The notes below the pieces were generated by a model. That model did no database searches, was not told where the DNA came from, and saw nothing but the letters and a program-made list of their open reading frames with translations. Below, in pieces: positions 5,060-64,000 of a stretch of 64,000 bases of DNA (the stretch's first letter is position 1; each line of letters begins with the position of its first letter). The stretch lies in the IMG/VR virus record IMGVR_UViG_3300010400_000001, positions 64,001 to 128,000 of that record. One strand, 5' to 3'. This DNA comes from a virus. Position numbers and translations under genes: made by a program.

Positions 5060-5363
5060 GCTTTTCCCCGTTCTCGATCGCCCATCATGGCGTCGAAGAC
5101 TTCCGGGCCGAGTTCCTGCCGCATCTCTTCGATCTGCTCTAGCGTCGGGCTCTCGTCGTCGTATGCGCCATCGACTACCTTCTGCGCCAGATCGACAAAG
5201 CCCGCTGCCTGGAGGTCGGCGACCAACTGTATCTTCGGCGTCGCAAGCTCGGAATCGAAGTCGTGGTAGACGCCGGCCTTAGCTCGCTGCTCGATGTAGG
5301 CGCGCTTGAGCGAGTACGGCTTCTTCCAGAGATCTTCGACGAGCTCTTTCTTGGTCGTTCCCA

Positions 5364-5720
5364 TCAGCGGGCCTCCTGAGCGGTAAAGCGACGGATGAGT
5401 TCCATCACGAGTTCGTCGCCACCCTGGCGCCGGTCAATGTACTCCGATGCGACGTAGTGCTCGTCCGCTACGCCGCGCCCGGCCTTGCGGCGCACGTACC
5501 CGGGCTTGTCGGGATCATCTTCGTTCGTGGAACATGCCCAAACCGTCGGCTCCCCGCCGCCCATCCGCTGAGGCGAGAGCGGTCCGCCGCAAACAGGACA
5601 TGGCGGGATCACGCTCGGCCGATAGCGCTCGGTCAGCTCTTCGACGAGCTCCGCATTGCTCCAGTCCGGCGGTTCCTTTTCGTAGCGCTCGTTTCGTTTC
5701 TTGCGCTCGGCTGGTGTCAT
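5364..5720 (-). CDS. Ead/Ea22-like phage protein
   Basis: PPCPVCGGPLSPQRM...WACS...GRGVADEHY motif resembles, from memory, the Ead/Ea22-like family. Confidence 0.45.
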   Translation of the reverse strand: MTPAERKKRNERYEKEPPDWSNAELVEELTERYRPSVIPPCPVCGGPLSPQRMGGGEPTVWACSTNEDDPDKPGYVRRKAGRGVADEHYVASEYIDRRQGGDELVMELIRRFTAQEAR

Positions 5721-5946
5721 CCTGGCCCCCCTCTCGCCGGCGAGTCACTCACGAATCGAATGGCGCGCTTAGGAACAAGCGCGGACCCCAATGCCCCGAG
5801 AAAACGACCGCGCCCACCAAGCCGCACTGCGCGCTCGTCCACTGTTCGGATCCGGTACCGTGTTTTCGTTTCCCCAACGACGAGAACCGCCGTCTCGTGA
5901 TAGCCGGCCCAGTCGTTCATACACAGCCAGGCCATGCGCTCGGTAG

Positions 5947-6801
5947 TCATCTAACCCTCCCTACTTCCTCACCGCAATCCGGACAGCGACCGACGATGGT
6001 ACTCGGGTGTTCGCACTTGGCTGGCGCATCACCGAGAACCGAGCGGGCTTTTTCGAGCCACGGCATGACGAGTTCTTGATTGTGCGGACTGATAGACCGG
6101 GCTGCCTGAGCGAACGGCATTGCCTCCCGCACGAGCGCGCGGAGTTCGTCGAGCGTGGCATCGCCACGAGCCGGCTCAGCCACGGATACGATGTCCGAGC
6201 TCGCGAATGCTGGCGGCCCGTACGGCACATGTGCCTTCGGCTCCCGGTTGCGTTCCCAACATTCGGCGTGGAGCCCCTGCCAAATCGTGGCACCACCGAC
6301 ACGCATTCGGACAAGCCACTCCACCGGCTTGCCGTCATAGAAGCCAGCTTCGTCCCGCGGCTTGTGGCAAATAACACACGAGCAACGGCAGTCCTCGCCT
6401 GTCGCCGGGACTGGTAGGAAGACGAGTTGATCCTGCCTGGCTTCGCGGAGGGCTGCGGCTTCCGCGCGCGCCTCGTTGCGTTGCCCGACCAACACCGCCA
6501 CGGATCTAGGAAGCTGGTAGTCCTCGCTGTCGAATTCGTCGCCGGGCAACGCATCCTCGGTTTGCACGTATGCCTCACATGCCCAGAGAATCTTTCGACC
6601 CTTGCCGACGTCGTCATCCCCGAGACCGAGCCTGCCGTCGATGGCGGAGTAAGCGGCATCGCGGAGCTTTCTGAGCTCGGTGACCTCTCTAGCCAGCTCA
6701 CGTATTACAGCGATCTCTGGCGCCTCTTCCTGCTTCGGCGGACAAATCAGGTGGCGTCCGGGCTGCCCGCAACGCTCGCAGTAGCGAGGAACGAGGCTCA
6801 T
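5947..6801 (-). CDS. Hypothetical protein with several Cys/His clusters
   Basis: ORF with CERC, CRCSCVICH and CPDC motifs; overlaps neighbours. Confidence 0.65.
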   Translation of the reverse strand: MSLVPRYCERCGQPGRHLICPPKQEEAPEIAVIRELAREVTELRKLRDAAYSAIDGRLGLGDDDVGKGRKILWACEAYVQTEDALPGDEFDSEDYQLPRSVAVLVGQRNEARAEAAALREARQDQLVFLPVPATGEDCRCSCVICHKPRDEAGFYDGKPVEWLVRMRVGGATIWQGLHAECWERNREPKAHVPYGPPAFASSDIVSVAEPARGDATLDELRALVREAMPFAQAARSISPHNQELVMPWLEKARSVLGDAPAKCEHPSTIVGRCPDCGEEVGRVR

Positions 6802-7308
6802 GTGCCGCTCCCATCGCCTAGGACGGAGCGGGCTTTGTCGAGCCACTCTCGCGCATCGTCAGAGCCCCGCACGTCGGCGTACTCGAGTGCATCGCACATC
6901 GGCATTGCCTCCCGCACGAGCGCGCGGAGCGTATCGATCTCGCAAACGAGCTCTCGCACCATGACCCGAGCGCCCTTGGGGTACTCCGACCTGGCTCCCC
7001 AGTCGCGACATTCAGCCAACTTGCTCTCCTTCATGGCCACTCCGAACAGCCGAGCACCCGCGGCTCGTCGCTATGCTTGAGCTCGTCCCACATGGAGACC
7101 GTTCCACGCTCCGTATCCGTGTTGCACTTCAGTTTCCGGGCGCGCTCTTCTGAGCATTCCGAGATCGTCGCTTCCTCGAAGTCTTCCGGGTCTGATCCCT
7201 GCTCCTCACCCACGACGTAAAGAAGCTCTCGAGCGTGCTCCGGATGCAGGGCAGCGACCCAGTACGTTGCGCCGCCCACCGCGGCCTGGAAGATCTTGAG
7301 CGGCAGCG

Positions 7309-8340
7309 TCATGGCTCGAACCCGAGCCTACCGAGCTCCGCGGCGATGAGGTCGAGGTCCCCCCACGCTTCGTCGGTCACTTTTCCGTGTTTGTTCATCC
7401 AATGGCGCATCATCTGGCACAGGGCGCGGAGCTCGAAGTGCTCGGCGGCGAATTGGCGGCGACTGTATGCCGGACAGAGCCGAGCTTCCTGAATCGCGTC
7501 TTCGATATCGGCGCCGCAGTCGCCGCACATGTCGGCGCCGCCCTCTGCCGGGGTGACAGGACGGTGCGTCTCCACGATGGTGACGAGCGAGTCGTGAACT
7601 CTAGAAACGATCGACTCGAAGTTCTCTTCGTCGGGACACCCAGCTGCTTCGGTTAGGCGCGCCAAGGATGCGCGGAGCGTCGTGTTCTCGGCATGAAGCC
7701 GTTTCAGCGAGTCCCGATCTGCTTCCGCGAGCGCCCTCGGCAGGCGCTGGCGATTGAGCCTCACGATCTGCTCACGCAATTCGACGTTCTCGCGCCGAAG
7801 CTCCTCGACCTCTTTCGTAGGTTCCTGCATTTCCCTCACCTCCATGTGCCGGATTGCGTCCGCGAACACGCGGAGACCAACTTCCGTATCGATGTGGTAG
7901 ACGTCGACCACGATTCGCGCGGCCGCGGCCTTCTTATCGACTACGCATCGCCATGTGTTTTCGATCCATTTAAGCCTTTCGGGCACGCTCTCTTCTCTCC
8001 CATCAGGGTCTTCGTACAAGCGCACGCCGTCAGCGTCGTAGTATTTCGCGCCGTAGGACTCCGGGTGAGGACAGGCGCAATGGCCGCCGCTCCGAATGTC
8101 GGTCCTGCCCACCGGATCGGCGTACAGCTCTCGCGCGAGTTCGATCGGCACCGGCCCCTCGGCTACCCAGTAGGTCCACGCGCGATGGAAGTTAATGAGG
8201 CCGAGTTTGCCCTGGAGCGTTGCCGCTACCTCGCCAGCCAAGCGGGGGCCCTTGACGATCGAAATCCGCGCGCGCGTGAGCTCCTCTCGGATGTGCTCGT
8301 CACACTCGGCCGAGCCGGCTAGATTCACGAGTCCGCTCAC
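7309..8340 (-). CDS. Hypothetical protein with a coiled-coil middle segment
   Basis: ORF; EVEELRRENVELREQIVRL heptads; GTG start overlaps the upstream stop. Confidence 0.65.
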   Translation of the reverse strand: MSGLVNLAGSAECDEHIREELTRARISIVKGPRLAGEVAATLQGKLGLINFHRAWTYWVAEGPVPIELARELYADPVGRTDIRSGGHCACPHPESYGAKYYDADGVRLYEDPDGREESVPERLKWIENTWRCVVDKKAAAARIVVDVYHIDTEVGLRVFADAIRHMEVREMQEPTKEVEELRRENVELREQIVRLNRQRLPRALAEADRDSLKRLHAENTTLRASLARLTEAAGCPDEENFESIVSRVHDSLVTIVETHRPVTPAEGGADMCGDCGADIEDAIQEARLCPAYSRRQFAAEHFELRALCQMMRHWMNKHGKVTDEAWGDLDLIAAELGRLGFEP

Positions 8341-8763
8341 TTCTTTTTTCCTTGCGCCGGGTACACGATTCGCACGAAGGCATACTCCCAGATGACAACG
8401 TCCTGGCCGCGCGCCCACTCCTGAATCCCTTCGAGCGGCTCCTTCTCGAGCAGGAAGTGTTCGCCGTTCGGACGGACAATGATCCAGTGATTCGCGCCCG
8501 AGAGCGGAGCGGGGACGAGCGCTTCCGGATCTGCCGTTGCATGCGCGTCCACCTTGGTTGGTTCTTTATTCATGTGCCTCACAGTTTCGCTACTACTACA
8601 GCGATGGCCACGCTCCCCGCGCACCAGCGCGGGCTCGCGCCAAGAGCGAAGGCGCACGCTCCAACGAAGAGCGCGTTACCGAGAATGGTCGTCATGTGCT
8701 CCACTTTCTCTGCCACGAGCTTCATTGCCGGGTCGACCCGTTCCGCTTCGTCGAACACGTCTC

Positions 8764-12466: not shown

Positions 12467-13890
12467 AGCAACCCGCTGAGCTTCGGCCGCGAGAGGGTAG
12501 GCCGCCGCCGCTAGATCTCGACGCGGAGGCTGCGGTGCTGAGCACCGTGCTGCTCGTCCCAGCAGCGTTCGATGAAGTCGCCGGCGTGCTCCAGGCTCAC
12601 ATGTTTTACTCCGAGGCGAACAAACGCATCTTCGAAGCCGCGACCTCGCTCAGGCAAGCCGAGAGCGCGATCGATTTCGTGACGGTCGCCGCGTGGCTCA
12701 ATCGCGAAGGGAAACTCGCCGTCGTCGGTGGGACGCCGTATCTCACGATGCTGACGGACGAGACGCCGTTCGTGAACAACGTTCTCCACCACGCCGAGAT
12801 CGTGCGCGACCGATGGCAACTCCGCCGGCTCATCGTCGAGTGTCAGAATTACGCCGCGCTCGCATACACGTCGAGTGAGCCGGCGATCACGATCGTTCAA
12901 GCCGCGGAGGGCGCGATCGCCGAGCTCTCGGTGCACGGCGCCGGCAAAGACCTCGAGCACGTCGGCACGATCATCGAATCCGAAGTCGAAGTGCTCGCAA
13001 CGATCCAAACCGACGGCGTTCGTAATCACGGGACCGGGATCCCAACCGGCTTCGAAAATCTCGACGGGCTCATGGGCGGTCTCCATCGCGGCGACCTGTA
13101 CATCGTCGCTGGTCGCCCCGGCATGGGCAAATCGTCGCTCGCAAGAAACGTTGCCGTGAACGTAGCGCGCCCCCGCCGTCACGCAGTTGCATTCTTCACG
13201 CTCGAGATGCCGAAGAGCCAAGTCGCGATCGGTTTCGCATGCAGCGAGCGCGACGTCCGAATGGCGAACGTCAGAAAAAATGCACTTGGTCCAGACGAGT
13301 GGGAAAACTTCAAACTCGGCGCGCGCGAACTCGCGTCTTACCCGATTTGGATCGACGACACGCCGGCGCTCTCGCTCTTCGACATTCGGGCTCGCGTGCG
13401 AAAGCTGCAGCGAGACATAGCGGCCAAGCGGACGCCGGTCGAGTGTGAAGAACTCGGTCTCGTTGTCGTGGACTACTTGCAACTCATGCGCGGCGTCAGG
13501 AGCTACAACGACAATCGAGAGAACGAAGTGTCGAGCCTGAGCCGCGGACTGAAAGAGCTCGCCAAAAACTTCAACGTGCCCGTGATGGCGCTCAGCCAAC
13601 TCAATCGCTCCGTCGAAACGAAGCCGAAGAAAGATCGCCGTCCACAGCTTTCAGATCTCCGCGAGTCGGGAGCGATCGAGCAAGACGCCGACGCCGTCGG
13701 GTTCGTTTACCGACCGGAGTACTACGACAAGGAAGCGCGCAAGGGCGACGCCGAGTTCATCATCGCGAAACAGCGTAACGGCCCGCCAGGAACCGTCACG
13801 ATGCACTTCAAGGGCGACTCGATGCGCTTTTACGAACGAGCGCACGAGACCCTCGAAGAGCTCGAGTCCGACTTCATCGAAGACCGATGA
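12451..13890 (+). CDS. dnaB: Replicative DNA helicase DnaB
   Basis: PPLDLDAEAAVL N-terminus, AGRPGMGKS, FTLEM, VVVDYLQLM, LSQLNR, SDLRESGAIEQDAD, IIAKQRNGP. Confidence 0.97.
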   Translation: MQPAVKQPAELRPREGRPPPLDLDAEAAVLSTVLLVPAAFDEVAGVLQAHMFYSEANKRIFEAATSLRQAESAIDFVTVAAWLNREGKLAVVGGTPYLTMLTDETPFVNNVLHHAEIVRDRWQLRRLIVECQNYAALAYTSSEPAITIVQAAEGAIAELSVHGAGKDLEHVGTIIESEVEVLATIQTDGVRNHGTGIPTGFENLDGLMGGLHRGDLYIVAGRPGMGKSSLARNVAVNVARPRRHAVAFFTLEMPKSQVAIGFACSERDVRMANVRKNALGPDEWENFKLGARELASYPIWIDDTPALSLFDIRARVRKLQRDIAAKRTPVECEELGLVVVDYLQLMRGVRSYNDNRENEVSSLSRGLKELAKNFNVPVMALSQLNRSVETKPKKDRRPQLSDLRESGAIEQDADAVGFVYRPEYYDKEARKGDAEFIIAKQRNGPPGTVTMHFKGDSMRFYERAHETLEELESDFIEDR

Positions 13891-51749: not shown

Positions 51750-52055
51750 GTGGAGCTCAGCGTCATTCCAGAAACCGAAGCCGATAGGCAGACGGCGTTC
51801 CTCGCGTTCTCCGCAATCCTCGGCGGCGGCGTCGTCGCTTACCAAGCGGGCCGATCGATTCGGGACGGAGATCTCTTCAAGACGGAGCCGTTCGAAGGCA
51901 ACGCAGAGGTGGGTCTCGTCGCCACGGCAGCCGGCGTCGGTATGCTCGGTTTTGCTGCGAACGAAGCAGCGAAGTCCGTCGGCTGGAAACCCCTCATCCT
52001 CGGCAGCGTCGGTATCTTCGCGTTCGCGATCGTTGCGCGAGCGATCCGGAAGTAG
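51750..52055 (+). CDS. Small three-TM membrane protein (holin-like topology)
   Basis: Three hydrophobic segments, basic C-terminus; last gene of the rightward block. Confidence 0.5.
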   Translation: MELSVIPETEADRQTAFLAFSAILGGGVVAYQAGRSIRDGDLFKTEPFEGNAEVGLVATAAGVGMLGFAANEAAKSVGWKPLILGSVGIFAFAIVARAIRK

Positions 52056-53377
52056 CTTCAGTCGTCGCCGAGCAGGGCCATGAGGCGCTTCTGAAGCGGC
52101 CTGACGACCTTGTCCCAGCCGATCTGGGCTTTGCCTCCGAGCTGGAAGTCGTCCGAGCCGCTACACCAGTTCAGTGCGTCGAGGCACTCTCGAAGGAGCG
52201 GCTTACCGCGGAGCGCGGCGTTGCCGTCTTCTTCGAGGCAAAAGAGCGAAAACAGGACGAGCTCTCGCCATTCGCACTCGCCCGTTGGGAGCTCACGAAA
52301 CCGCGCCGCGAGCGTCGGGTACTTCGACCAGTCGACGCGGGACTTGATGAGATTCGTTGCGTAGTCGAGTTGTTCGTTACTCATGTTCTCGGACATGTAA
52401 GGACCTTTCTCTTCAGTCGTCGTCCTCGAGTGGGCTCCCGTCCTCGTCGGTTTCTGTGGGTGGTGCCGGGACAACTGAGTCCCAGCGGCGCCATTCGCGT
52501 AGTCCGGGATGGAAGCGAAAGCCGATCGACTTCAAGAGGAAGCGCGACTTGGGAGAGATGCTGCCAGGGCAACGGAAGACCCACGCAAGGCTCGAGCCGT
52601 TGCTGATGCGCTGCACGATGCCCCCGTGCTCTTCCCGAATGTCGAGGAGGAGGTCGGGCGGCGCCGCCCTGTCAAACTCGTTCATGTACCGCCGCCCGGG
52701 AAATCCGAAGCTCACGATGGTCTCCGCTTGCGATGTCTCACTCGAAATCCGTAGGCAAGGCAGCCGAAGCCCACGTCGCGGCTGGTGTGGCCGCGGATAA
52801 AAAAGATCCTGCGGCCTATGATCGATACGACCTCGGTGCCGTTCGGGATGCTCGAGTACCACTCGGCAGGAAAGAGCATGAGCGCCTTTCCGTCGGCGTC
52901 TGGCGCGTCCCACGCGCCGCAGCCCATCTCTTTCAGGGCGATCGTGTCGAGCTCCCGAAGCGCCTCGAAGTCGACGGGCGGCGCGGCGGGCGCCGGCATG
53001 CCGGGGAGCCTCTCGGCCGGTCTCGACGACACGTGGACCTCTTCATTCGGCCCGGCTCCGATCGCTCGCCGAATCGCCCCTGCCGTACGAGACTGCTTGG
53101 CGGTTTTCAGTTTTCCTCTCGGCATGGACGGCCTATGGGCACAAGACAGTGCGAAGCGAGCGACACTCGAGCACGAGATACGTGCCGGTTTCTGAGCTCG
53201 AACAGAAGAGAGGACCGTTCGGTCCCTGAATGAAAGCTGCCGGCCTGGAGGACGCGTGCGGAGCTTGAGGCATGCTGCTCCAGCATTCGTCGTGCGCACG
53301 AAGGCGCCAGAAAAGCCAAGCCATTGCACTGAGACCCAAGAGCGCCGCCATAACAATGACAACGTCCAGAAACTTTT

Positions 53378-54178
53378 TCATGGTCGACTCTGCATGGCGA
53401 AGGAAGAGCGCTGCTGGGAGAAAAGGGAGAGCAGGCGCATGGCGTTCTGCTTGAAGAGGAAGGCGACGTCGTCTTCGAAAATGGGGAGGGCCGGGGAAGA
53501 ATAAGTTGGTCGCTCGGTGGGCGGGGTTTGCAGCGCGACGCGCGCAGGAAAGCGTACCGTCCGCGGTAGTTTGTGCGGCGTGCCAGAAACCATCTTCTCT
53601 GGCTCGAGGACGATCGAGCCATCGAGCAGGCCGGTCACGGGCGCCGTTGCATCGGCCTCCCACTCGTGGACGCCGGCATTCGGCATGAGAGCGGGGCAGA
53701 GGTGTTCGGTCGAGAGCATCCGCATGTCCGCCCCCTTGATGACGGTATCCTGCCAGGGCGTTGGGGCCGTGAGGCCGAAGTGCTGGAGGACAGCGCGCTG
53801 CACGCGCGCGTTGATCGCATCGAGCGAGGACGTGACCGGTTTCGGCGTGAAGCGCGGATCTCCGGTCGCGCGTGACCGGGACTCTAGGAGTCGAAGAGCG
53901 GCCTTTAGCGGGCCAGAGACATCTCCGGTGTACGCCTCGTGGCCATCGTGAAACTGACCGAGGAGCTGCAGCAGGTAGTCCTCCGGATATTCGAGCTCGA
54001 TGAGCTTCCAGACCCAGAGGCAGTGCTCGCCGACGGAGTACGAGCGCGCCGTGTGCCCAGTGAAGCGACTGAGGTGCGCCAGGCTGTGCGACAGGTCAGT
54101 GAGATCGACGGCGTCCGCATCGGGTGCGAGCAGGTCGAAGCGTTTGCCGCTTAGGGTTTCTATCCAGGGAGCTATCAT
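53378..54178 (-). CDS. HD-domain phosphohydrolase (YfbR/YfdR-like deoxynucleotidase)
   Basis: IETLSGKRFD, DLSHSLAHLSRFTGH, YSVGEH, FHDGHEAYTGDV, IKGAD. Confidence 0.88.
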   Translation of the reverse strand: MIAPWIETLSGKRFDLLAPDADAVDLTDLSHSLAHLSRFTGHTARSYSVGEHCLWVWKLIELEYPEDYLLQLLGQFHDGHEAYTGDVSGPLKAALRLLESRSRATGDPRFTPKPVTSSLDAINARVQRAVLQHFGLTAPTPWQDTVIKGADMRMLSTEHLCPALMPNAGVHEWEADATAPVTGLLDGSIVLEPEKMVSGTPHKLPRTVRFPARVALQTPPTERPTYSSPALPIFEDDVAFLFKQNAMRLLSLFSQQRSSFAMQSRP

Positions 54179-57100
54179 GGGGACTCTTTCTCGGTGACGG
54201 TGAACTCGAGCTCTTCGATGACAGCGCCGGCGATCCCGTTCTTCACGAGGCTGCCGACGGCTCCGCCGAGCGCCCGCTCGAGACGCTCTCTCACGAGCGA
54301 GGCGTTTGCCCGTGTCGGCGAGCACTTCAGGCGGATTTGAAACGCAATCTCTCGCGGGCCGCTTTCGGTAAGCGACGGCTCTTCGGCGACGCGCTCGAGG
54401 AGGAGTTCCATTTCCTCTTCGGTCGGCATGTGCCGATTCGGCGAGCCGCTTGCCGACCGGAGAAGCGTGACCGCGACGTCCCCGTCCGGCCCTGGTTTCG
54501 TCACGACGAGCGTGCCGCTCGGGAGTTCCCAGAGCGAGTCGCCCTTGTGCGTCCGCTCTCTAAGCCGCGTTGCGTAGCGGATCTGAGTCTCGAGCTCTTT
54601 GTGAGCCGCGGCAGGGGACAGGCTTCGGTCGCAGCGCGAGATGTACTGCTCGACAGCGTGATGGGTGAGGATGATCATGGGCCGCGCTTCACTCTGCGCC
54701 CCTGCTCTTCTCCCAAGGAGGCCGCATGTGCGGAAGAGCCGGGAGCTCGAACTCGCGGTGGAGCTCTAGAGGCGGGAGCGCGTCAGTGCACGTGCGACCG
54801 TCGAGGCAGCGCTCGTACCAGGAAAAGATTCGGTCACAGCCTTGCTCTTCTCTCTGGAGTTCGTCCTGAGCAAGGATCTTTTGCGCGAGGACTATCTCGA
54901 GCTCCTCTTTTGAGTCGCGACTGTCGCTCTGTCCGACGTCGAGACCGAGCTCGAACGAAGAGAGGGCGACTAGCGCGCACGAGGTCACGACGACGAGCTC
55001 TGCGTGGAGCTTCATCGGGATTGCCGTTCGTCCATGAGCTTCAGCCAGTGGAGGGCCGCCTCGCCGGTCCTGTCCGGCATGTTCGGTGTGTCGTCGCAAA
55101 GCCAGCCCCGCAAGAGATTCAGCGTGTCCGAGAGCGAAACCGTCGCGCCGTAGCCGTCAGTGAAGCAGGGCCACTCGTGCGCTTCTGCCGGCATCCGCTC
55201 TAGCCAGTGCACGGCCGAGAAGGCCGTTTCGATCGGATACATCCTCTTACCGTGATTGGCCCACCCATCGAGAGATCCGATCGTTTCGGACAGGTCGTAC
55301 TCGCAGTCGTGGCTCATGGTCTCACTCGTAGTAGTCGCCATCGTCGTAGCAGTCTGGGCACGGCCCGCTCTCGAATTGTTCGTAGTCGTGGAAGGGACAC
55401 AAGAAGAGAGGCCCAATGGGCTTTGGTGCCGGCTCCGCGCGCCTAATGGACTCGGTGCAGATGCCGTCCTTGAACTCCATGCGAACTTCGTAGAAGACGT
55501 GCGGTTCGAGGTTTTCGAGCTTCATTGCTCGCCTCCGTCCCACTTGTCTCCAATCATCTCAGCGCAAACGCGAAACACGTTCCGCATTGCTGCGTGGGAG
55601 GCCTCGAAGTCTTCCATGTCGTCGACATGGAACAAAAGCCTGTCCACGTCGTCTTCAGTCGGCGCGAACCACTGCGTGCAGCCGTCCCATTTGCGGAAGC
55701 CAGTGATGCGCGGTTCGCACTCGAGCGGATCGTAGCTCCGGTGCATGAGATCCCGCGAGTCGCCAGTGTCCTTTTTGACGAAGATATTGCGACCGTCGTC
55801 CTCGTAGGCCTGCACTTCCCACATGCGGAAGCTGACGCTGAGGCCGTTCTCGTGGAGCTCCCAATCCGCGAACCAGGTCGGGTGCTTCTTGCCGGGCGGA
55901 TCGACGCATTCGGGGCCGCGCCTGCTCATGGGGAAGGAGTCTCCCTGTCTGTCATCTTAGGCGGCGCGCGAACGAACGTATGATCTTTCTTCGGCGGTCG
56001 GTCCCGGAACATCGCCTCCTTCGCGCGTTCGTATGTTGCGTCGTCCACCACCGGTCGGAGCGCTGCCAAAGCCTTCTCGAAGTCCGCTCGGCTGCTGTCG
56101 TGGTGGGCATCCAGGTGCTCGCCGCACACGGTGCAGTAAGGCGGCCCTGGGCACTCGGTCGGCGCCGCCGCTGGGCTGTACCGGCAGTGCATGCAGTGTT
56201 CGACCTTGGTGTCGAGGCCGACCCAGAAGTGCCCGTTCCGACGTTGCCTTGACTCGTCGGCTACGCCGCCGAAGATGTCTGTTACGTGGCCCATGGTTGC
56301 AGTCTCCTCCGCGCGCGGACGCGCGCCTGGTTCGTCGGGCTTGCTCATAAAAGGCGCTCCTGCTTCCGAGTCCGGTTCTCGAGATCTGCGATCATCTCCC
56401 TCATGTATGCGCGCTCGTTTTCTCGGTGCTCGCACTCGCGAACGAGCGCCTCGCGGAACTCGGCGTCGGTGTACGTGCCGTCGATGCGGCGGAGAACCTT
56501 CCGGACCGCGCCGCTCGACACGGTTCCGAGAGCGACCTCGAAGATGTGCACGACGCGAAGCCGCTCGGCGGCAATGCCGGCAGGGCGCCCCAGAAAGTAT
56601 CCGAAGCCAATGAGGCACACGTTCTCTAGGAGAAAGAAGACTGCGAGTACGAAAAAATAGCTCATCTGCCCCGAGGCTCTCTTTTGGTCTTTGCCGAGCG
56701 CTCATGCCTGGCGAACTCTTGGACGTCAGTCCAGAAGCGTTTAGTCACCGCATCAGTGCATGAGCCGATGAGCCCTTGCACTTCATGTTCGAATGCCTCC
56801 GGATCCGTAAGGAGGATCGTCCGGAGTTCTTCGACGGTGATCCTTGCCGAGCGTCGTTCCGCCACGACGTCCGTAATTCTACCTGGTTCGAGCTCCTGGT
56901 CCACCCCGAGTACTAGCCTCCGTATAGCTCCATTGCCGCCATGCGGAGCGCGCGTTGCCACGCGGACGGCGCGCACTTCCAGGGTAAGCCCTCGGGCGCG
57001 TAGCCCTCTCTCCAGAGAAAATCGTGGATACTGGCCGCGATGAACTCCGGATCTGGAAAGCGGGCCTCGAGCTTCGTTTCGAGCTTATCGATGTCGTTGT

Positions 57101-57217
57101 GGAGCCCCGCCGTGGTCTCCTCGGCCATCGCGAGCTCTCCTTCGAGGGCTTTGACGGCGGAGTCGATGTTGATCGTTTCCTCGAGCGCTTTCTGGAGGAG
57201 AGTTTTTAGGTCTTCAG

Positions 57218-57973
57218 TCATGGCGTGCACAGGATGGTTTCGGCGTCTTCGATCTCTGCCGCCTGAGAGACTTCCATCGGCGGCCCGAGATGTCCCGAGT
57301 GCCGTACGTGCTGGAGACAGAACCCTCGGTCTTTCAACATGGCCAGGAGTTCGATGTTTTTCTCGGCACGGTGGTGCTCGAGAAAGATGGTCGGTTTCCG
57401 GTCGAGGAGCTTCGGCGCGCCTCCCAGCACTTCTGGCTCGAAGCCCTCGACGTCGATCTTCAGGATGATCGGCGCTGCCAGCGGGTCGTTCTCTATCTCG
57501 TCGTCGAGCCGCACGACGAGGACCGACTGACGCTGGAGCGCTGGATCGTCAGTATGACTGACAAGGCTCGCGCCGCCGAGCGCCTGAGGATCGACGACAA
57601 GCGTTCGCATGTCCCTTTCGGACCCGCACGCCGCCGGCAAGAGAGTGCAGCGCTTTCTGTACCCGTTGACGGTCAGGCTGCGAGCGAGAAGCTCGCAGAG
57701 GTGCACGTTCGGCTCGAAGGCGTACACGCGGGCGCTCGCGAAACGACAGGCGAGTAGCGTGTACCAGCCGAAGTTTGCGCCGACATCGATGACGGTGGCT
57801 CCCGGCGCTTCGGAGAGCTTTGCCAGGAAGGCTTTGGTGACCCACTCCTCCCACATGCCGTCGAGCATGAGGTGCGGGGCGAGGCTCGTGTCGCGTGTGT
57901 CGACGTAGATCTTGTCTCCCCAGTGCGTGACAGCGAGCACCGTGTGGTCTCCGAGGTAGATGGCGGGTCTCAT
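57218..57973 (-). CDS. FkbM-family SAM-dependent methyltransferase
   Basis: VIDVGANFGWYT, VYAFEPN, LKIDVEGFEPEVLGG. Confidence 0.92.
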   Translation of the reverse strand: MRPAIYLGDHTVLAVTHWGDKIYVDTRDTSLAPHLMLDGMWEEWVTKAFLAKLSEAPGATVIDVGANFGWYTLLACRFASARVYAFEPNVHLCELLARSLTVNGYRKRCTLLPAACGSERDMRTLVVDPQALGGASLVSHTDDPALQRQSVLVVRLDDEIENDPLAAPIILKIDVEGFEPEVLGGAPKLLDRKPTIFLEHHRAEKNIELLAMLKDRGFCLQHVRHSGHLGPPMEVSQAAEIEDAETILCTP

Positions 57974-59586
57974 TTTGGGCGTCTCGCGCGACGATGGTTT
58001 CGCAGCGTGGTTTGCAATCCGGCGTTCTCCAGCGCGCGCGCATAGCCCTTGCCCAGCGTGGTGAGTCGATAGCCGAACCGATCGCGTGAGCTGTCCGTGC
58101 ATGCCGCGAGCCCGTGGGCTGCGAGAATTCTCAGGGTGGCGAGATTCTTGCGAGGAAAGTACCAGGTGCCGTCCTTGTTCCGATTCGGCTCGGCGAGCTC
58201 TAGGAGCATGCGGCACTGGGGTAGCGATAGCTTCACCCTGGTGGTCTGCACGAGTATTCCAGTAACCGGCTCGTCCGCTGTAGCGGATTGCGACCGCTTC
58301 ATGGCTGCACCGGAGACCGTGCTGGTTCGCTCACCCATTGCGCATGTCTCGGCGACGCCGAGTTCGGCGTCCACTGCAGCGAGTCGGATCCATCAAACGC
58401 CGGCACCCGAAGTGCCCAGCAGTCACGGCACTTCTCGAGTACGGTGCCAACGTCCACGAACCCGGTGCGAGCATGCGAGCATCCTTGAAACCGGCGCGAC
58501 GCGGCAAGGTATTCGCGATCCCACTTCCAGAACAGGAACTGAGCGTGCGCCTGACTGAGTAGGCTCTGCAGCAGCGACTGCTTCATGAGTCGGGCCCCGC
58601 TAGCCGGTAGCCGGCGTCCGTCGCGTGCAGAATGGCCTCTTCGCGCGTGGCAAAAGCGCCCACGCTTCCTTCGTCGCGGTACTCGTCGTCCCAGTAGTAC
58701 CAGCCCGGCCCGTCATGCGCGTTGTCAGCGTCATTGAAGTACTGTAGCTCGGCGAGCGGCTGCTCTTCGAGCATGCCGGTGTGGCCACAGTTGGCGCAGC
58801 CCTTGCCGGCGCAGCACGTGGAGGGGGCATCCGATATCGTCATGTCCCTGTCTGTCTCACGATGTTCCCGTCGTCGTCTCGCTTGTTGCCGAATGGATCG
58901 AAGCCCGTGCATGCCGCGCGAAGACCCCAGCCGACGCCCTTCATGCAGTAGCCGGGCTCGACGAGGCCGAGCTCGAGAGCGAGTGCGACGCCGGCGTCGG
59001 TCGGCTCGAAGAGCGCCACGTCGCCCTCGACTTCGCCGTCGATGTCGTAGCCCATGCACCGGAACTGAAGAAGCCCGCGCGCGACTAGCGAGTCGACGGT
59101 CCGGTGCTGCCCGGAGCCGCGCGGAAAGACGCACGGCGCGCCCCACGTGTCGGCGATGTGGCAGCAGCGAAAGCAGCCCGCGAGCATGCCTTTTTGTCGG
59201 TCAGAGAGAGAAAACTTCATGACGGTAGACTGTTGAGCTCTTTGATCATCCATCCGTTGCGCCGCATTGCCTCGGCTGCTTTTGCCCAGACGGCGCCGAT
59301 TTGAAGCGGAGCACGCGAGGACATTGAAGCCACTCGTCCTTGGATGACAAGAACGAAGAAGGCGCCGCCGTCCGTGTGAAGTATCTGAAACCAGGTCATC
59401 GGATTTTCGGCCTCCGTTCTTGCATCCGTGCACGGGCCAGGATGATCTCCTGCTCGGTGCGCTGCGTGATGGCCCCATGCCAGACGCCGAGCTTATTCGC
59501 CGCCTCGCGAAGCGAGCGCGAGCTGTCGAGTGCCCGAACGACCTCACGGGTGGTCACGATACGAGGGCGGCCGCGCGCGGGAGCGA

Positions 59587-60072
59587 TCAAGAGCGCTTCC
59601 CTCCTTCGCCGTCAGCGAAGTACCGCTCGGCGCCTCCGAGACCCGGGCCCTCGATGCGCTCGTCGGGAGCCTTGAGCCCGGGATGGCGAAGCGGATCGAT
59701 TGTTTCCCAGCGCCCATCCTCGGTCTCGTAGTCGAGAAAGAGAGTCCAGGAGCGATCGTAGCGTGCCGCCACGAACCGACAGCAGATCCCTAGGCTTCCG
59801 GCGAGCGCCGCAACGAAGATGCAGGCGTCATCGACATCCACGGTGTTTCCAGGCGTGCGCGGCATCGAGCCCAAAACCTCGGTGGGATCCGGAGCATATC
59901 GGAACCGACGGTGGAGTTCGTCCACGAGGAGTCGCATCGTGTCGCGACGATTCGAGCTCGAGGCCGTTACCTCGAGCGCCAGGACGTGAACGTCCGGACT
60001 GGCGCGTTCTCGCATGGCCACAGTGGCTAGCGCGGCGAGTTGTTCGTCGAGCGCTACGGGCCGCGTGCTCAC
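59587..60072 (-). CDS. Transglutaminase-like protein with degenerate catalytic triad
   Basis: FRYAPDP, VDVDDAC (catalytic Cys position is Val), SWTLF (His lost), WETIDP. Confidence 0.65.
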   Translation of the reverse strand: MSTRPVALDEQLAALATVAMRERASPDVHVLALEVTASSSNRRDTMRLLVDELHRRFRYAPDPTEVLGSMPRTPGNTVDVDDACIFVAALAGSLGICCRFVAARYDRSWTLFLDYETEDGRWETIDPLRHPGLKAPDERIEGPGLGGAERYFADGEGGKRS

Positions 60073-60398
60073 GATACGAACCCCATGAGCATCCCCATGA
60101 TGCTGTCGTCCGCGTCGTCCGCCCACGCGGGCATCACTTGACCCGGGCCTCCAGAGAGAACGATGCGGACCATGTCGGCGAGCTCTGTCAGAATCTCGAC
60201 ACGGTCAGGGGCTCCTCCCTCAAGAAGGTCCGGAAGTTTTACGAGCGCCGCTTCGACGAGCGTTCGGCGAAACATGAGCTGCATGGCAGGAATGCCGTTG
60301 AATTCGTAGCTCAGCGAAACGTAGGGCTCGTCGAGCCACACGCGTACGCAGGAATTCACCGGAGGTTTGTTGGATTCAGTCATCGATCGACCGCGCCC

Positions 60399-61222
60399 CT
60401 GACAATGGACGCCTGTTACGAAGTCTATTCCGAAGTGTCATCCGATCAGCTCACGCCGCTGATAATCGCCGCCCATCACGAGGTGCTACTGGACCTGACA
60501 ATCGCTGCCCGTCACGAGAGGTACCGCGCCTGACAAGCGCCGCCCGTCACGAAGCGACTTTCGAGACCGCTGCGGTCGTCGACCGAACGACTTCGGGGTC
60601 GAGCGATTGACAAGCGTCGCCCGTCACGAAGGTGCTTTCTCCTCCGCAAAGCCGCGGAGGAAACAAATGGAGAATTGACATCTGACAAGCGCCGCCCGTC
60701 ACGAGGTGACTCGCGAGTGACGGAGCGTTCTCTGCTCGCAGCGTCAGAGCAACGACTGACAACTCGGCGTCCGTCACGAGGTGCCTCCCAAGAGCTCGGT
60801 GCGCGCGTTGCTTCCGTGGTCGCACCAGTCTGACAAGCGCCGCCCGTCACGAGGTGCCCCCTCGCCCGTTGAACGGGAAGCGTCGTACGATGACGCCCGG
60901 GTACTGATAAGCGGCGCCCGTCACGAGATTCCCCTCGAGCGGGTCGTGCTCGTACAAGTCACCTTCTGACAAGCGTCGCCCGTCACGAGGTGCCCCTCGC
61001 TCCGGCGAGCGACATGCGACTGCACCCAGGGGCGAACCTCTGACAAGCGCCGCCCGTCACGAGGTGCCCCCCGCTTTCGCCAGCGCGAACACACCGGTGG
61101 CGACGAGAGTCGTCTGACAAGCGCCGCCCGTCACGAGGTGCCCCCCGCTGCGCGATCAGCGCAGATCCCAGGAGACTGACTATGGCCTGACAAGCGCCGC
61201 CCGTCACGAGGTGCCCCCCGCT
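60399..61222 (-). CRISPR. CRISPR-like array of 13 repeats. Consensus 36 nt on the minus strand: AGCGGGGGGCACCTCGTGACGGGCGGCGCTTGTCAG. Spacers mostly 37-38 nt.
   Basis: Plus-strand repeat starts 60399, 60459, 60495, 60530, 60607, 60682, 60756, 60830, 60904, 60966, 61040, 61114, 61187; period mostly 73-77 nt; the three gene-proximal repeats are identical and the rest decay distally; 3' hairpin TGACGGGC/GCTTGTCA has G-U pairs only on the minus strand. Confidence 0.85.
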
Positions 61223-63012
61223 CGGTGCGCCAGGAGACCTGGAAACTCGCTGCGTTGGGGCTCGATTTGCGAGCGGTTCGGATCGTCGGCTCCGAACAAG
61301 GCCGTATCCAGGCCGAATTGCCTAGATCCTAGATGGGCGTCACCAGACTGCTCGAAAGGAACTTCGTGATAGGCGTCGATTGGTCGCACTGAGTGCGACG
61401 CTCCGGAAACCCGATTGCCGGGGCCTGGGGCGCTTGTTACGTCGCCATGCGGGGCCGTGACAGAGGATTTCTCCTCCGCCCGTGCCGTCCGCTTCCGCCG
61501 GCCGTTATCCCCTTTCGGGGGTTTCAAACCCGCGCTCCGCGGGCCTGCTGCTGGGTCGCCCGAAGGCGCCCGGTAGTTCAATAGATTGATCGCCGAATTG
61601 TCGTCGCGATCTTCCTGATACCCGCACGTCGGGCACATGAACGTCGGATAGCCGGCGTTCGTGTCGCGCACGGCATTACAGGCCGAGCATCGGTTCGTCG
61701 TCGGCTCCTCTATCGGAACGAGCTCGAGGCGACCGCCGGCCCACGCCTGCTTGTACTCGAGCCGTCGCCTGAGATCTCCCATGCGAGCGGCGTGAACATT
61801 TTTGGCAAGTCGGTTTCGAGTGCGCGCGGCGTCTCCGCGCTTTCCGGCGCGCGAGAGCATCTTCGCAATGCCGGGTCCTCGCATCCGGACGGTCTCGGCG
61901 CCCATGTCGGCGATCTGACGAGCGGCCTTGCCGCAGACGTCGTCGCGAAGGGATTTGATGCGCGCGTGGTAATGAGCGACTCGCATGGCCGCTTCTTTCC
62001 AGCCCTGGCTTTGGTCGCGGGTTTTCACCCCGTCCTTCCATCGGCGAGCCATCCGCCGTTCCCACCGCTTGCGAAGCATCTCGAACTTGTCGATGCGCCG
62101 GTCGTCCCGAAGTGGCGAGTGCCACACGTGCCCCGCGCGCTCGCCGGTGGAAGCAACGGCAAGAACACGGACTCCGACTTCTACGCCGAGCTCCCTGCCG
62201 GGGACTCGCTTGGTCTGGTGCATCGCGAGAGCACGCCCGGGACCGCGCTTTTGCGGAAAGGGGCGAGGGACTTCGCATCGAAGTGCGACGTACCAGCGGC
62301 CGTCCTTCTCGGATACGCCGAGCCCGCATGCTTTGCCACCGCCGATGAAGCGATGAGAGTTTTCCTCGGTGACCGGAAGGTAGCCGCGTTCCTTCATTCT
62401 CACCCAGCCGACGCCAGGGATTTTGACTGCGCGCTCCGTCACTCGAATCGGATCGGGTTGGTCACTGTGATAGCTCGCGCGCTGCCGCCCGCGAAACCGC
62501 GGCGGTCCGGCGCTCGCGTAGCGGCCGGCCTTGAGGTGCTCGAAGAAGTGCTTCCAGCCGTCCGCGACGTCGAGCACGGCTTCGCGGATGGCGAATGCAG
62601 AGAGCTCAGAGAGCCAGCCAAAGCGCTCGGGTTGCTCTTCCTTGGCGGAGACGAGCTGCGAGTACCAGTCGACTCGACCAGCGCGGAAGTCAGGAAGCTG
62701 TACGCCCGAGGCAGGGCGATAGCGGTAGCGCGAGCCCGCCTCTGATTTCGGCGTACGCACCTTCACGGGCTCGCCGCGAATGAGAGCTGCAAGGCAGTAG
62801 CCGAAGAGAGCCGCAGCCTCCCCGCCTTTGGCGTCGATGCCCGCGAGCGCCCGGCAGCCGAGCGCGACCCCGCGGGTCCCGTCGAGCTCTTTCCATTTTT
62901 CCAAGGCCCAGTTGTGGGCCACTCGCGCGCCGGCGACATGTCGCGCGAGCACGACCCGCTGCTCGTCAGTCGGATCGAGCTCGGTCTTGTAGGCGCGGAG
63001 AATGGTGGTCAT
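61204..63012 (-). CDS. tnpB: TnpB/Cas12-like RNA-guided protein, predicted nuclease-dead
   Basis: N-terminal RAYKTELDPTDEQ...GARVAHNWAL; PPRFR; VKIPGVGWV; DGRWYV; RuvC-I LGVEVGV (D to E); RuvC-II TVRMRGP (E lost); LEYK; Zn ribbon CSAC...CPTC; RuvC-III DRDDNSAINL; about 120 aa low-complexity tail. Confidence 0.88.
   Translation of the reverse strand: MTTILRAYKTELDPTDEQRVVLARHVAGARVAHNWALEKWKELDGTRGVALGCRALAGIDAKGGEAAALFGYCLAALIRGEPVKVRTPKSEAGSRYRYRPASGVQLPDFRAGRVDWYSQLVSAKEEQPERFGWLSELSAFAIREAVLDVADGWKHFFEHLKAGRYASAGPPRFRGRQRASYHSDQPDPIRVTERAVKIPGVGWVRMKERGYLPVTEENSHRFIGGGKACGLGVSEKDGRWYVALRCEVPRPFPQKRGPGRALAMHQTKRVPGRELGVEVGVRVLAVASTGERAGHVWHSPLRDDRRIDKFEMLRKRWERRMARRWKDGVKTRDQSQGWKEAAMRVAHYHARIKSLRDDVCGKAARQIADMGAETVRMRGPGIAKMLSRAGKRGDAARTRNRLAKNVHAARMGDLRRRLEYKQAWAGGRLELVPIEEPTTNRCSACNAVRDTNAGYPTFMCPTCGYQEDRDDNSAINLLNYRAPSGDPAAGPRSAGLKPPKGDNGRRKRTARAEEKSSVTAPHGDVTSAPGPGNRVSGASHSVRPIDAYHEVPFEQSGDAHLGSRQFGLDTALFGADDPNRSQIEPQRSEFPGLLAHRAGGTS
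61357..61386 (-). ncRNA. Anti-repeat (tracrRNA/omegaRNA-like segment) inside the 3' end of the TnpB-like gene
   Basis: Plus strand AGGAACTTCGTGATAGGCGTCGATTGGTCG is an inverted, diverged copy of the repeat, so the minus-strand transcript can pair with the repeat RNA. Confidence 0.6.
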
Positions 63013-63956
63013 GGATCGTTTCCGCCGAGAGCACGAGACGCTTCGGTGAGCCAGTCGGGAACGGACAATTCCGACGGGCTCTTGGCCAGAGTGTACGAGT
63101 CGACGACGCCCTGCACAAGTTTTTCGAGGCGCGCGATCTCTTTGGCAGGGACATGTCTGGCGGCCTTTAGGCCGCCGAGGACCTTCCTCGCGTCTTCGCA
63201 GTGCTTTTCGAAAGTCATGTTCCGGGCCGGGGCATCCCGGCTATCGGCAATGAGCTGCTCGATGACGGCAAGGACGGTGCGTTCGGCGTCGTCCAGTACG
63301 GCATCGGTCACGGCGCTTCGGTTCTCTTCGTTGTCCAAGATCTCGACGACGGAGGCTCGAAGGCCCGTACGCGCGGCCGGGTCGTAGAACTCTTTCCGAA
63401 TCGCGCGAAGGGCGCCAATCACGCGATCGGCAGTCGGCTCTCCGGCAAGGAGGATGTAGCTCCCTTTGGTGATGAACCGGAAGGCTCGCGATTCCTCGAT
63501 CATGTAGGATACGGCACGTGAGACGGCGCCGGTGTTGGCGTGCGTCACGAGCCGTTCTGCTTTCTGCCGGAGCTCGTCAGCGAACGCGCGGCAGTCGGCG
63601 AGATCTTGTCCGTGCGCAGGCCCGGAAGTGAAGATCCCCTCCTTCGTCGAATACACGCGTGCGCCGGGCACGCTCTCTGCTCGCTCCCGTCCGTGCTGGA
63701 CGAGGCGCTCTACTTGAAACGAGGCGATGTGACTGCCGTCGCGCCCGACGAGCGCCGAGACGCGAAGGCCATCCCGCCTCTGCGTCCCGATGCCCGCCGC
63801 TGTCGCGGCGAGGGCCCGGTGGCGATCGAACTCTCGGAGGCGCCGCGCCGATCTCGAGAAGTCGTAGAGCGCGAAGACCCTGGCGAGCGATTCGCGATCG
63901 ACGTCGGTGAAACCCGGATAGGTGACACCGGTCTGGTAGGCGAGGACTTTGGACAT
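63009..63956 (-). CDS. Hypothetical protein (315 aa) translationally coupled to the TnpB-like gene
   Basis: Clean ORF; its stop overlaps the tnpB ATG (ATGA). Confidence 0.7.
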   Translation of the reverse strand: MSKVLAYQTGVTYPGFTDVDRESLARVFALYDFSRSARRLREFDRHRALAATAAGIGTQRRDGLRVSALVGRDGSHIASFQVERLVQHGRERAESVPGARVYSTKEGIFTSGPAHGQDLADCRAFADELRQKAERLVTHANTGAVSRAVSYMIEESRAFRFITKGSYILLAGEPTADRVIGALRAIRKEFYDPAARTGLRASVVEILDNEENRSAVTDAVLDDAERTVLAVIEQLIADSRDAPARNMTFEKHCEDARKVLGGLKAARHVPAKEIARLEKLVQGVVDSYTLAKSPSELSVPDWLTEASRALGGNDP

Positions 63957-64000
63957 GGCGAAGCGGCGCGTTTCTAGAGCGCCTTGTCGAAGTGTTGGAC

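Follow-up and report, generated by a model that had tools for sequence, protein, structure and literature searches.

The window analysed here (the whole stretch of 64,000 nucleotides, positions 64,001 to 128,000 of IMG/VR record IMGVR_UViG_3300010400_000001) belongs to a complete virus record of 136,226 bp with direct terminal repeats. A TnpB/Cas12n-like effector gene, a tracrRNA-type anti-repeat and a CRISPR array of 13 repeats lie together on its minus strand, and this locus is a genuine, phage-borne type V CRISPR system. Its features, in window coordinates, are the following.

57218-58216, minus strand: gene for an FkbM-type methyltransferase (Pfam 2.8e-16, PHROG methyltransferase 1e-29), 2.2 kb downstream of the array
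60399-61222, minus strand: CRISPR array of 13 direct repeats, 36 nt each, with unique spacers and a period of about 74
60459-60529, minus strand: two degenerate repeats at a spacing of 35-36 nt, in direct contact with one another and with repeat 10, no spacer intervening
60553-61186, minus strand: nine full units, in which spacer 3' ends and the 5' ends of the next repeats bear stems
61150-61186, 61076-61113 and 61002-61039, minus strand: spacers S1-S3
60940-60965, 60866-60903 and 60792-60829, minus strand: spacers S4-S6
60718-60755, 60644-60681 and 60567-60606, minus strand: spacers S7-S9
61204-63012, minus strand: effector gene, 602 aa, TnpB/Cas12n-like by Pfam, NCBIfam, PADLOC and PDB sequence matches
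61230-61242, minus strand: 5-bp hairpin (CCAGG/CCTGG) in the leader/ORF sequence, outside any spacer and ending about 10 nt ahead of repeat 1; none of the listed differences of the sister lineage X2 (there being 37 more) falls in it
61261-61279, minus strand: conserved motif, GAACCGCTCGCAAA... in minus sense, between the anti-repeat and repeat 1
61351-61382, minus strand: tracrRNA-type anti-repeat inside the ORF tail, complementary to the repeats (inverted repeats I1-I3 and I9)

The effector is matched by the Pfam families HTH_OrfB_IS605, OrfB_IS605 and Cas12f1-like_TNB, scores 156 bits against the NCBIfam model guided_TnpB (cut-off 100), and has full-length PADLOC matches to Cas12u4 (9e-51, over residues 2-515) and, equally good, to Cas12f (7e-52). 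Its best sequence matches are to TnpB proteins of the kind that work with an omega RNA (IS200/IS605, IS607). Among PDB sequences, ISDra2 TnpB is matched at 3e-21 and LaTranC weakly at 1.4e-5, whilst the similarity to RdCas12n (9J09) is modest and no better than that to ISDra2 TnpB (1e-10, or 6e-36 with the family profile). The last ~110 codons form a low-complexity tail overlapping the tracr-like RNA region. We collected 43 related proteins, 26 of which were aligned (A1), and loci from metagenomes and IMG/VR. In this alignment the acidic residue of RuvC-I is Glu (GVEVGV) in most members and Asp in four, the RuvC-II Glu of TnpB aligns to an invariant Arg (R378) that is followed by Gly in the window effector (P0001), and the RuvC-III Asp is present with DRDDN kept. 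Judged from the alignment, the nuclease site of this family may be rearranged or weakened. Since rearranged RuvC sites are known (PMC10691335), we do not claim that the effector is nuclease-dead.

The anti-repeat lies about 135-160 nt upstream of repeat 1. An anti-repeat co-varying with the local repeat was found, 125-203 nt upstream of repeat 1, in nine of ten loci (the window and nine relatives), the tenth being L005, where the anti-repeat is not clear. In the minimum free energy fold of 61165-61400 it pairs with repeat 1 in cis, like an omega RNA. The GAACCGCTCGCAAA motif standing between the two can be read by eye in the window leader and in those of L001/L003 and L177, with looser versions in L162, L013, L163 and L011; it probably belongs to the guide-RNA scaffold. 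The idea that the newest repeats had lost their pairing with the anti-repeat was rejected, hand pairing with G-U wobbles keeping 9 of 13 pairs in the 5' part.

Pfam and PHROGs searches of five ORFs beside the array and effector (four downstream, one upstream) gave nothing Cas-like, and cas1 and cas2 were not found in an NCBIfam and PADLOC scan of three flanking ORFs (two of them downstream), where the sole match was a Cas11a one (E = 0.0064, no domain passing), given by the ORF lying upstream of the effector. Absence of cas1/cas2 beside the array is described as usual for V-U-type systems in PMC10691335. Except for the methyltransferase, no neighbour ORF had an informative match in Pfam, PHROGs, NCBIfam or PADLOC, and none is conserved beside the loci of the relatives, which sit on contigs of 85-140 kb, one of them (G001) a complete 140-kb IMG/VR genome. 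The relative P0002, 98% identical, comes from a 107-kb contig. A gathering-threshold scan of the whole window against Rfam gave no match. Exact searches for the repeat returned nothing in metagenome contigs and nothing in viral contigs. A search of genome contigs for single-protein loci of the effector gave no relative, and the effector profile retrieved from genome contigs only distant TnpBs (at most 31% identical), with an array only at L091. In the phage collection there was no DNA match to 52000-64000 or to the array, and only distant TnpB protein matches (26% identical).

The repeat consensus in minus sense is [A/C][G/T]CG[G/A]GGGGCACCTCGTGACGGGCGGCGCTTGTCAG. Its 3' end is sharp (GTCAG in gene sense) whereas the ~10 nt at its 5' end are ill-defined, and the repeats become degenerate in the direction of 60399, away from the effector gene. 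These features agree with transcription of the array from the minus strand and a guide after each repeat. In the older repeats the 5' ~10 nt have strongly diverged and the 3' 26 nt are nearly identical. The 5' end of repeat 8 reads CTCGCGAG, a perfect palindrome; if its ancestral form was CTCGAGGGG, as we infer from the other repeats, about four clustered changes would have produced it. At the trailer end (60459-60566) repeats abut at a spacing of 35-36 nt without spacers, and a sister array described below carries at 60830-60865 an extra, duplicated repeat with just 7 nt of filler between the copies; such arrangements suggest duplication of repeats, or loss of spacers, without normal acquisition. 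We also observe, by BLAST against the 136-kb genome, that the 3'-end junctions of S7 and S4 (reaching 1-4 nt into the next repeat) have perfect complements of 14 and 15 nt inside the effector gene (60714-60727/62432-62445, E 0.016; 60938-60952/62946-62960, E 0.003), which could be chance.

Spacer origin could be traced clearly for one of the nine full spacers, the other eight giving just 10-17-nt matches. The initial annotation had asked whether target matches might cover only the repeat-proximal ~20 nt of a spacer; S5 instead matches the phage's own genome (G000 13360-13394) at 34 of 35 positions (E 1e-12), starting exactly at the repeat edge. Its target lies in a 198-aa ORF with weak phosphatase-like matches, and the homologous site in the related 140-kb phage G001 is 88% identical over 33 nt. 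As for S7, its first 17 nt match G001 74048-74064 perfectly from spacer base 1 and then diverge.

Turnover is visible between strains. X2, a sister lineage on landfill-metagenome contigs from a different study (compared through its differences and short inserts, not its full sequence), encodes an effector roughly 97% identical to that of the window (61 differences in 1856 nt). The two arrays have the older units in common, and X2 has one different spacer of 38-39 nt in place of S1-S3. In X2, 101 nt replace 31 nt inside S7, of which the first 16 nt are kept; a chimeric spacer was for this reason preferred to the idea that only the first 17 nt of S7 derive from a target, and S7 may be a chimera left by the deletion of one unit. 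L001 and L003 likewise have trailer spacers in common and differ in the leader-side ones. This pattern is the usual signature of polarised acquisition with occasional deletion. Near-matches to the own genome recur elsewhere: in G001, which carries the L162 array, two parts of the array query match the own genome (95% over 42 nt and 97% over 32 nt, not aligned to spacer edges) and also match G000, G005 and G007. Going by these alignments, some spacers of the phage-borne arrays of this effector family resemble the genome that carries them, which could point to self-regulation, to competition among close relatives or to an effector limited to binding.

Turning to the structure of the spacers, the initial annotation had noticed hairpins at a similar position in most of them, and these are indeed there. 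We defined a junction window of 28 nt in minus-strand sense (21 nt from the spacer's 3' end joined to the initial 7 nt of the 36-nt repeat that follows; this size was chosen after the data had been seen) and counted as a stem any perfect Watson-Crick helix of at least 5 bp with a loop of 3-10 nt. Across the nine full units (plus-strand unit starts 60530 to 61114) the helices measured 6, 5, 6, 5, 5, 3, 4, 8 and 5 bp, which gives seven junction windows out of nine with a stem. Among 20,000 GC-filtered windows of 28 nt drawn from the own 136-kb genome, 14.5% have one (binomial 3.6e-5, for a window chosen post hoc), as do three of nine windows taken from the first 28 nt, i.e. the guide end, of these same spacers. 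The hairpin frequency at the junctions is above the GC-matched background.

Folding energies point to the same place. The summed energy at the junctions lies at z = -3.6 against dinucleotide shuffles, a value reached, after correction over 13 offsets, in 1 of 400 cases (p = 0.0025), and a sliding-window profile puts the signal at the spacer 3' end and next repeat 5' end, with z about -3.5. For the 26 nt that are repeat-proximal in plus sense, opposite the guide end, the energy sum was reached by 4 of 1000 shuffles and by none of 1000 GC-matched genome windows. Whole spacers are not clearly unusual (p = 0.20 against shuffles, 0.05 against GC-matched windows), and the repeat-distal 22 nt at the guide end are not more structured than expected (p = 0.61 and 0.32, respectively). 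Cognate spacer/repeat junctions fold better (-82.1) than permuted ones (-67.3 +/- 6.4; p = 0.012), and the transcribed sense slightly better than its complement (-82.1 vs -74.4 kcal/mol), with nine G-U pairs against three. The enrichment of hairpins in the window array is real.

Some properties of the stems had been read differently at first. They are at spacer 3' ends, as reported, but they are not entirely the spacers' own, since they straddle the boundary and draw 0-9 nt from the following repeat, whose 5' end is poorly conserved. Their placement at the 3' end on a minus-strand RNA agrees with the orientation of the array, where they come 3' of an unpaired guide-side stretch that measures 13-25 nt after the repeat in eight of nine units. 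The stems are short (5-8 bp), and their register against the repeat shifts by about 10 nt. The unit at 60756 has no proximal stem, whilst that at 60904, missing from the earlier list, has CGAGC/GCTCG. In three stems of that list (GACCGC-t-GCGGTC, ACTCGCGAGT and CCCGTT-g-AACGGG) the loop is just 0-1 nt, and as RNA these would be shorter.

All nine parsed related loci (L001, L003, L004, L005, L007, L011, L013, L162 and L163) have their array immediately downstream of the gene, again with 36-nt repeats and an unchanged period. The junction comparison covered 10 related arrays and 60 units, i.e. 49 non-redundant units from nine arrays and 11 from L177. The 49 pooled units gave z = +1.1 to +1.9 at junction offsets 27-33, the four largest related arrays gave corrected p values of 0.45-0.72 and L177 one of 0.49, and junction stems of at least 5 bp were present in 4 of 49 and 0 of 11 units (4 of 60 overall). 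The hairpins are lineage-specific, and neither a property of the family nor a conserved working part. The L177 locus (G006 5216-8476), reached via the relatives of the target gene, lies on a 61.6-kb viral fragment, with 13 repeats in its array and a tail region that is tracr-like. Only this tail was matched by the family profile (positions 521-601), the upstream 431-aa ORF, which may be a divergent or broken effector, not being recognised, and the 5' end of its repeat is a small palindrome, CTCGC-AG-GCGAG.

In its architecture the window system resembles several known ones. In Cas12n (V-U4/V-N), according to PMC12216341, the C-terminal loop is disordered, the ORF overlaps the tracrRNA region, and 20 nt of the 40-nt crRNA serve as guide. 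The window shares with it a miniature TnpB-like effector with a probably disordered tail, a coding sequence overlapping the tracrRNA, an array without adaptation genes and, by analogy, what would be a 20-nt guide cut from a longer spacer. The Cas12u4 match is in keeping with this, although the Cas12f model does equally well; the modest similarity to RdCas12n, the Glu in place of Asp in RuvC-I of most members of the family and the carriage by a phage set the window system apart. An intact RuvC D-E-D triad and RNA-guided cleavage of dsDNA at an A-rich PAM also characterise Cas12n. TranC and the V-U* systems (Altae-Tran et al. 2023) are TnpB-derived effectors that gained arrays independently, and both accounts (bioRxiv 10.64898/2026.03.27.714800; PMC10691335) describe features also seen here, namely a right-end/omega RNA split into tracrRNA and crRNA, lack of cas1/cas2, repeats of 32-38 bp, and small arrays, some of them in phages; the weak LaTranC match is a difference. 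Like TnpB with its omega RNA, the window system has a guide-RNA scaffold overlapping the 3' end of the gene, a guide following the 3' end of the scaffold, and an anti-repeat and repeat 1 that fold in cis, yet where a TnpB transposon has one guide at its right end, along with TnpA and transposon ends, the window has 13 repeats and a set of spacers that turns over between strains.

The interpretation we favour, with modest confidence, is that this is an ordinary, adaptive, phage-borne type V array of the Cas12n or TnpB-derived type, in which the junction stems are chance or neutral products without conserved function. The C-terminal coding tail of the effector, disordered to judge by its low-complexity sequence, would double as a tracrRNA-like scaffold, the anti-repeat would pair in cis with repeat 1 and in trans with each of the remaining repeats, and the guide, as in Cas12n, would be roughly the 20 nt after each repeat. 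The stems would then lie in the last third of the spacer, away from the PAM, and in the opening nucleotides of the repeat that follows, a stretch that would normally be trimmed from the mature crRNA. They could owe their existence to chance, amplified by the array being picked for its pattern, or else to neutral formation of local palindromes, by changes of the template-switch type, in a junction zone free of constraint. Such freedom is expected because target matching constrains the first ~20 nt of the spacer, and binding of anti-repeat and effector constrains the 3' ~26 nt of the repeat. The diverged 5' ends of the repeats and the palindrome CTCGCGAG of repeat 8 suggest local changes of a palindrome-forming kind. 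As for chance, p values around 1e-3 to 1e-4 are unsurprising, since the array was flagged for its pattern in a very large scan.

Several observations sit uneasily with the chance or neutral interpretation. The signal survives correction (p = 0.0025, with seven of nine junctions against 14.5% of genome windows), and cognate junctions out-fold permuted ones, as if their two sides had co-adapted. The 5-bp hairpin before repeat 1 stands in non-spacer sequence. The slightly greater stability of the transcribed sense and its excess of G-U pairs are what a function at the RNA level predicts. Against neutral change in particular, the three newest spacers, beside identical repeats, are already stemmed and have had little time for it, and against chance, the size of the selection effect brought in by the choice of array is a guess.

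Another explanation, which we consider possible though rather doubtful, is selection: in this lineage the tail of the spacer, together with the opening nucleotides of the repeat behind it, would be kept as a stem-loop of the RNA. Such a stem could define the 3' end of the crRNA or protect it against 3'-5' exonucleases, or it could insulate the repeat from mispairing so that anti-repeat pairing and processing proceed; point or compensatory changes in spacers already acquired, or the loss of stemless spacers, would give rise to it. Positional enrichment at the junctions, cognate-specific pairing of spacer and repeat, the sense-strand bias with its G-U pairs, the hairpin before repeat 1 and the 13-25 nt of guide left unpaired in eight of nine units all agree with it. 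So does S5, where a 4-bp stem of the target grows to 6 bp through the final base of the spacer and the opening base of the repeat. The related proposal that CGG was added to S5 after acquisition is weakened by the X2 target, which appears to read CG at those two positions (60867). The X2 array copy of S5 has, at 60888, the same base as the targets.

Against selection stands the absence of such stems from the 60 units of 10 related arrays of the same architecture. Moreover, the leader-side spacer that is X2's own has an 8-bp bulged internal stem and, by eye, no junction stem of at least 5 bp, a change in X2 (60656 G>T) breaks the strongest stem of all, that of S8, and the stems are short and drift in register by about 10 nt. 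Work on Cas12a bears on both sides. Liao et al. [quoted passage not shown] Such structure is there incidental or harmful, in synthetic as well as native arrays, whereas most spacers of the window array share a stem, and a natural array with most spacers sharing a 3' structure is not described in the available text of that paper (PMC6610086). We regard as unlikely the specific proposal that post-acquisition changes have maintained a stem-loop, built from the PAM-distal tail of the spacer and the opening bases of the repeat behind it, by which the crRNA 3' end is set or protected.

Less probable again, and in our opinion quite improbable, is that the stems were there from the start, the integration route preferring prespacers whose PAM-distal end folds back or anneals to the 5' end of the repeat. 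S1-S3 each have CGCT 6-8 nt upstream of the repeat's AGCG, and no adaptation genes were seen among the flanking ORFs scanned (five with Pfam/PHROGs, three with NCBIfam/PADLOC). The CGCT motif, however, is a post hoc reading of three spacers, the S5 target lacks the full stem, relatives with the same gene set show no such preference, and the X2 spacer has no junction stem. Finally, the initial proposal that the units are evolved cassettes of guide plus hairpin, or an array of structured RNAs, and not an immune record of acquired spacers, finds agreement only in the positional enrichment of hairpins and is very hard to believe in view of the near-full-length S5 protospacer, the strain-level turnover seen in X2, the unrelated and unstructured spacers without enrichment in the 10 related arrays and the absence of any Rfam family from the window.

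Guide RNAs with engineered hairpins exist, and structure on the PAM-distal side, outside the guide, can change the abundance and activity of crRNAs. Should the stem-loops prove to be selected, they would be a natural counterpart of such hairpin-extended guides, and this would be the first array with spacer sequence outside the guide under structural selection. Functional stems would mean that selection is able to shape the ‘discarded’ portion of a spacer, and would offer a simple design rule for stabilising the guides of miniature editors of the TnpB/Cas12n type. As it stands, the value of the locus is mainly descriptive, a complete 136-kb phage with a compact, tracrRNA-dependent, TnpB-derived CRISPR system whose turnover is visible, and its near-self spacers are useful for considering phage-against-phage competition or self-regulation by effectors of this kind.
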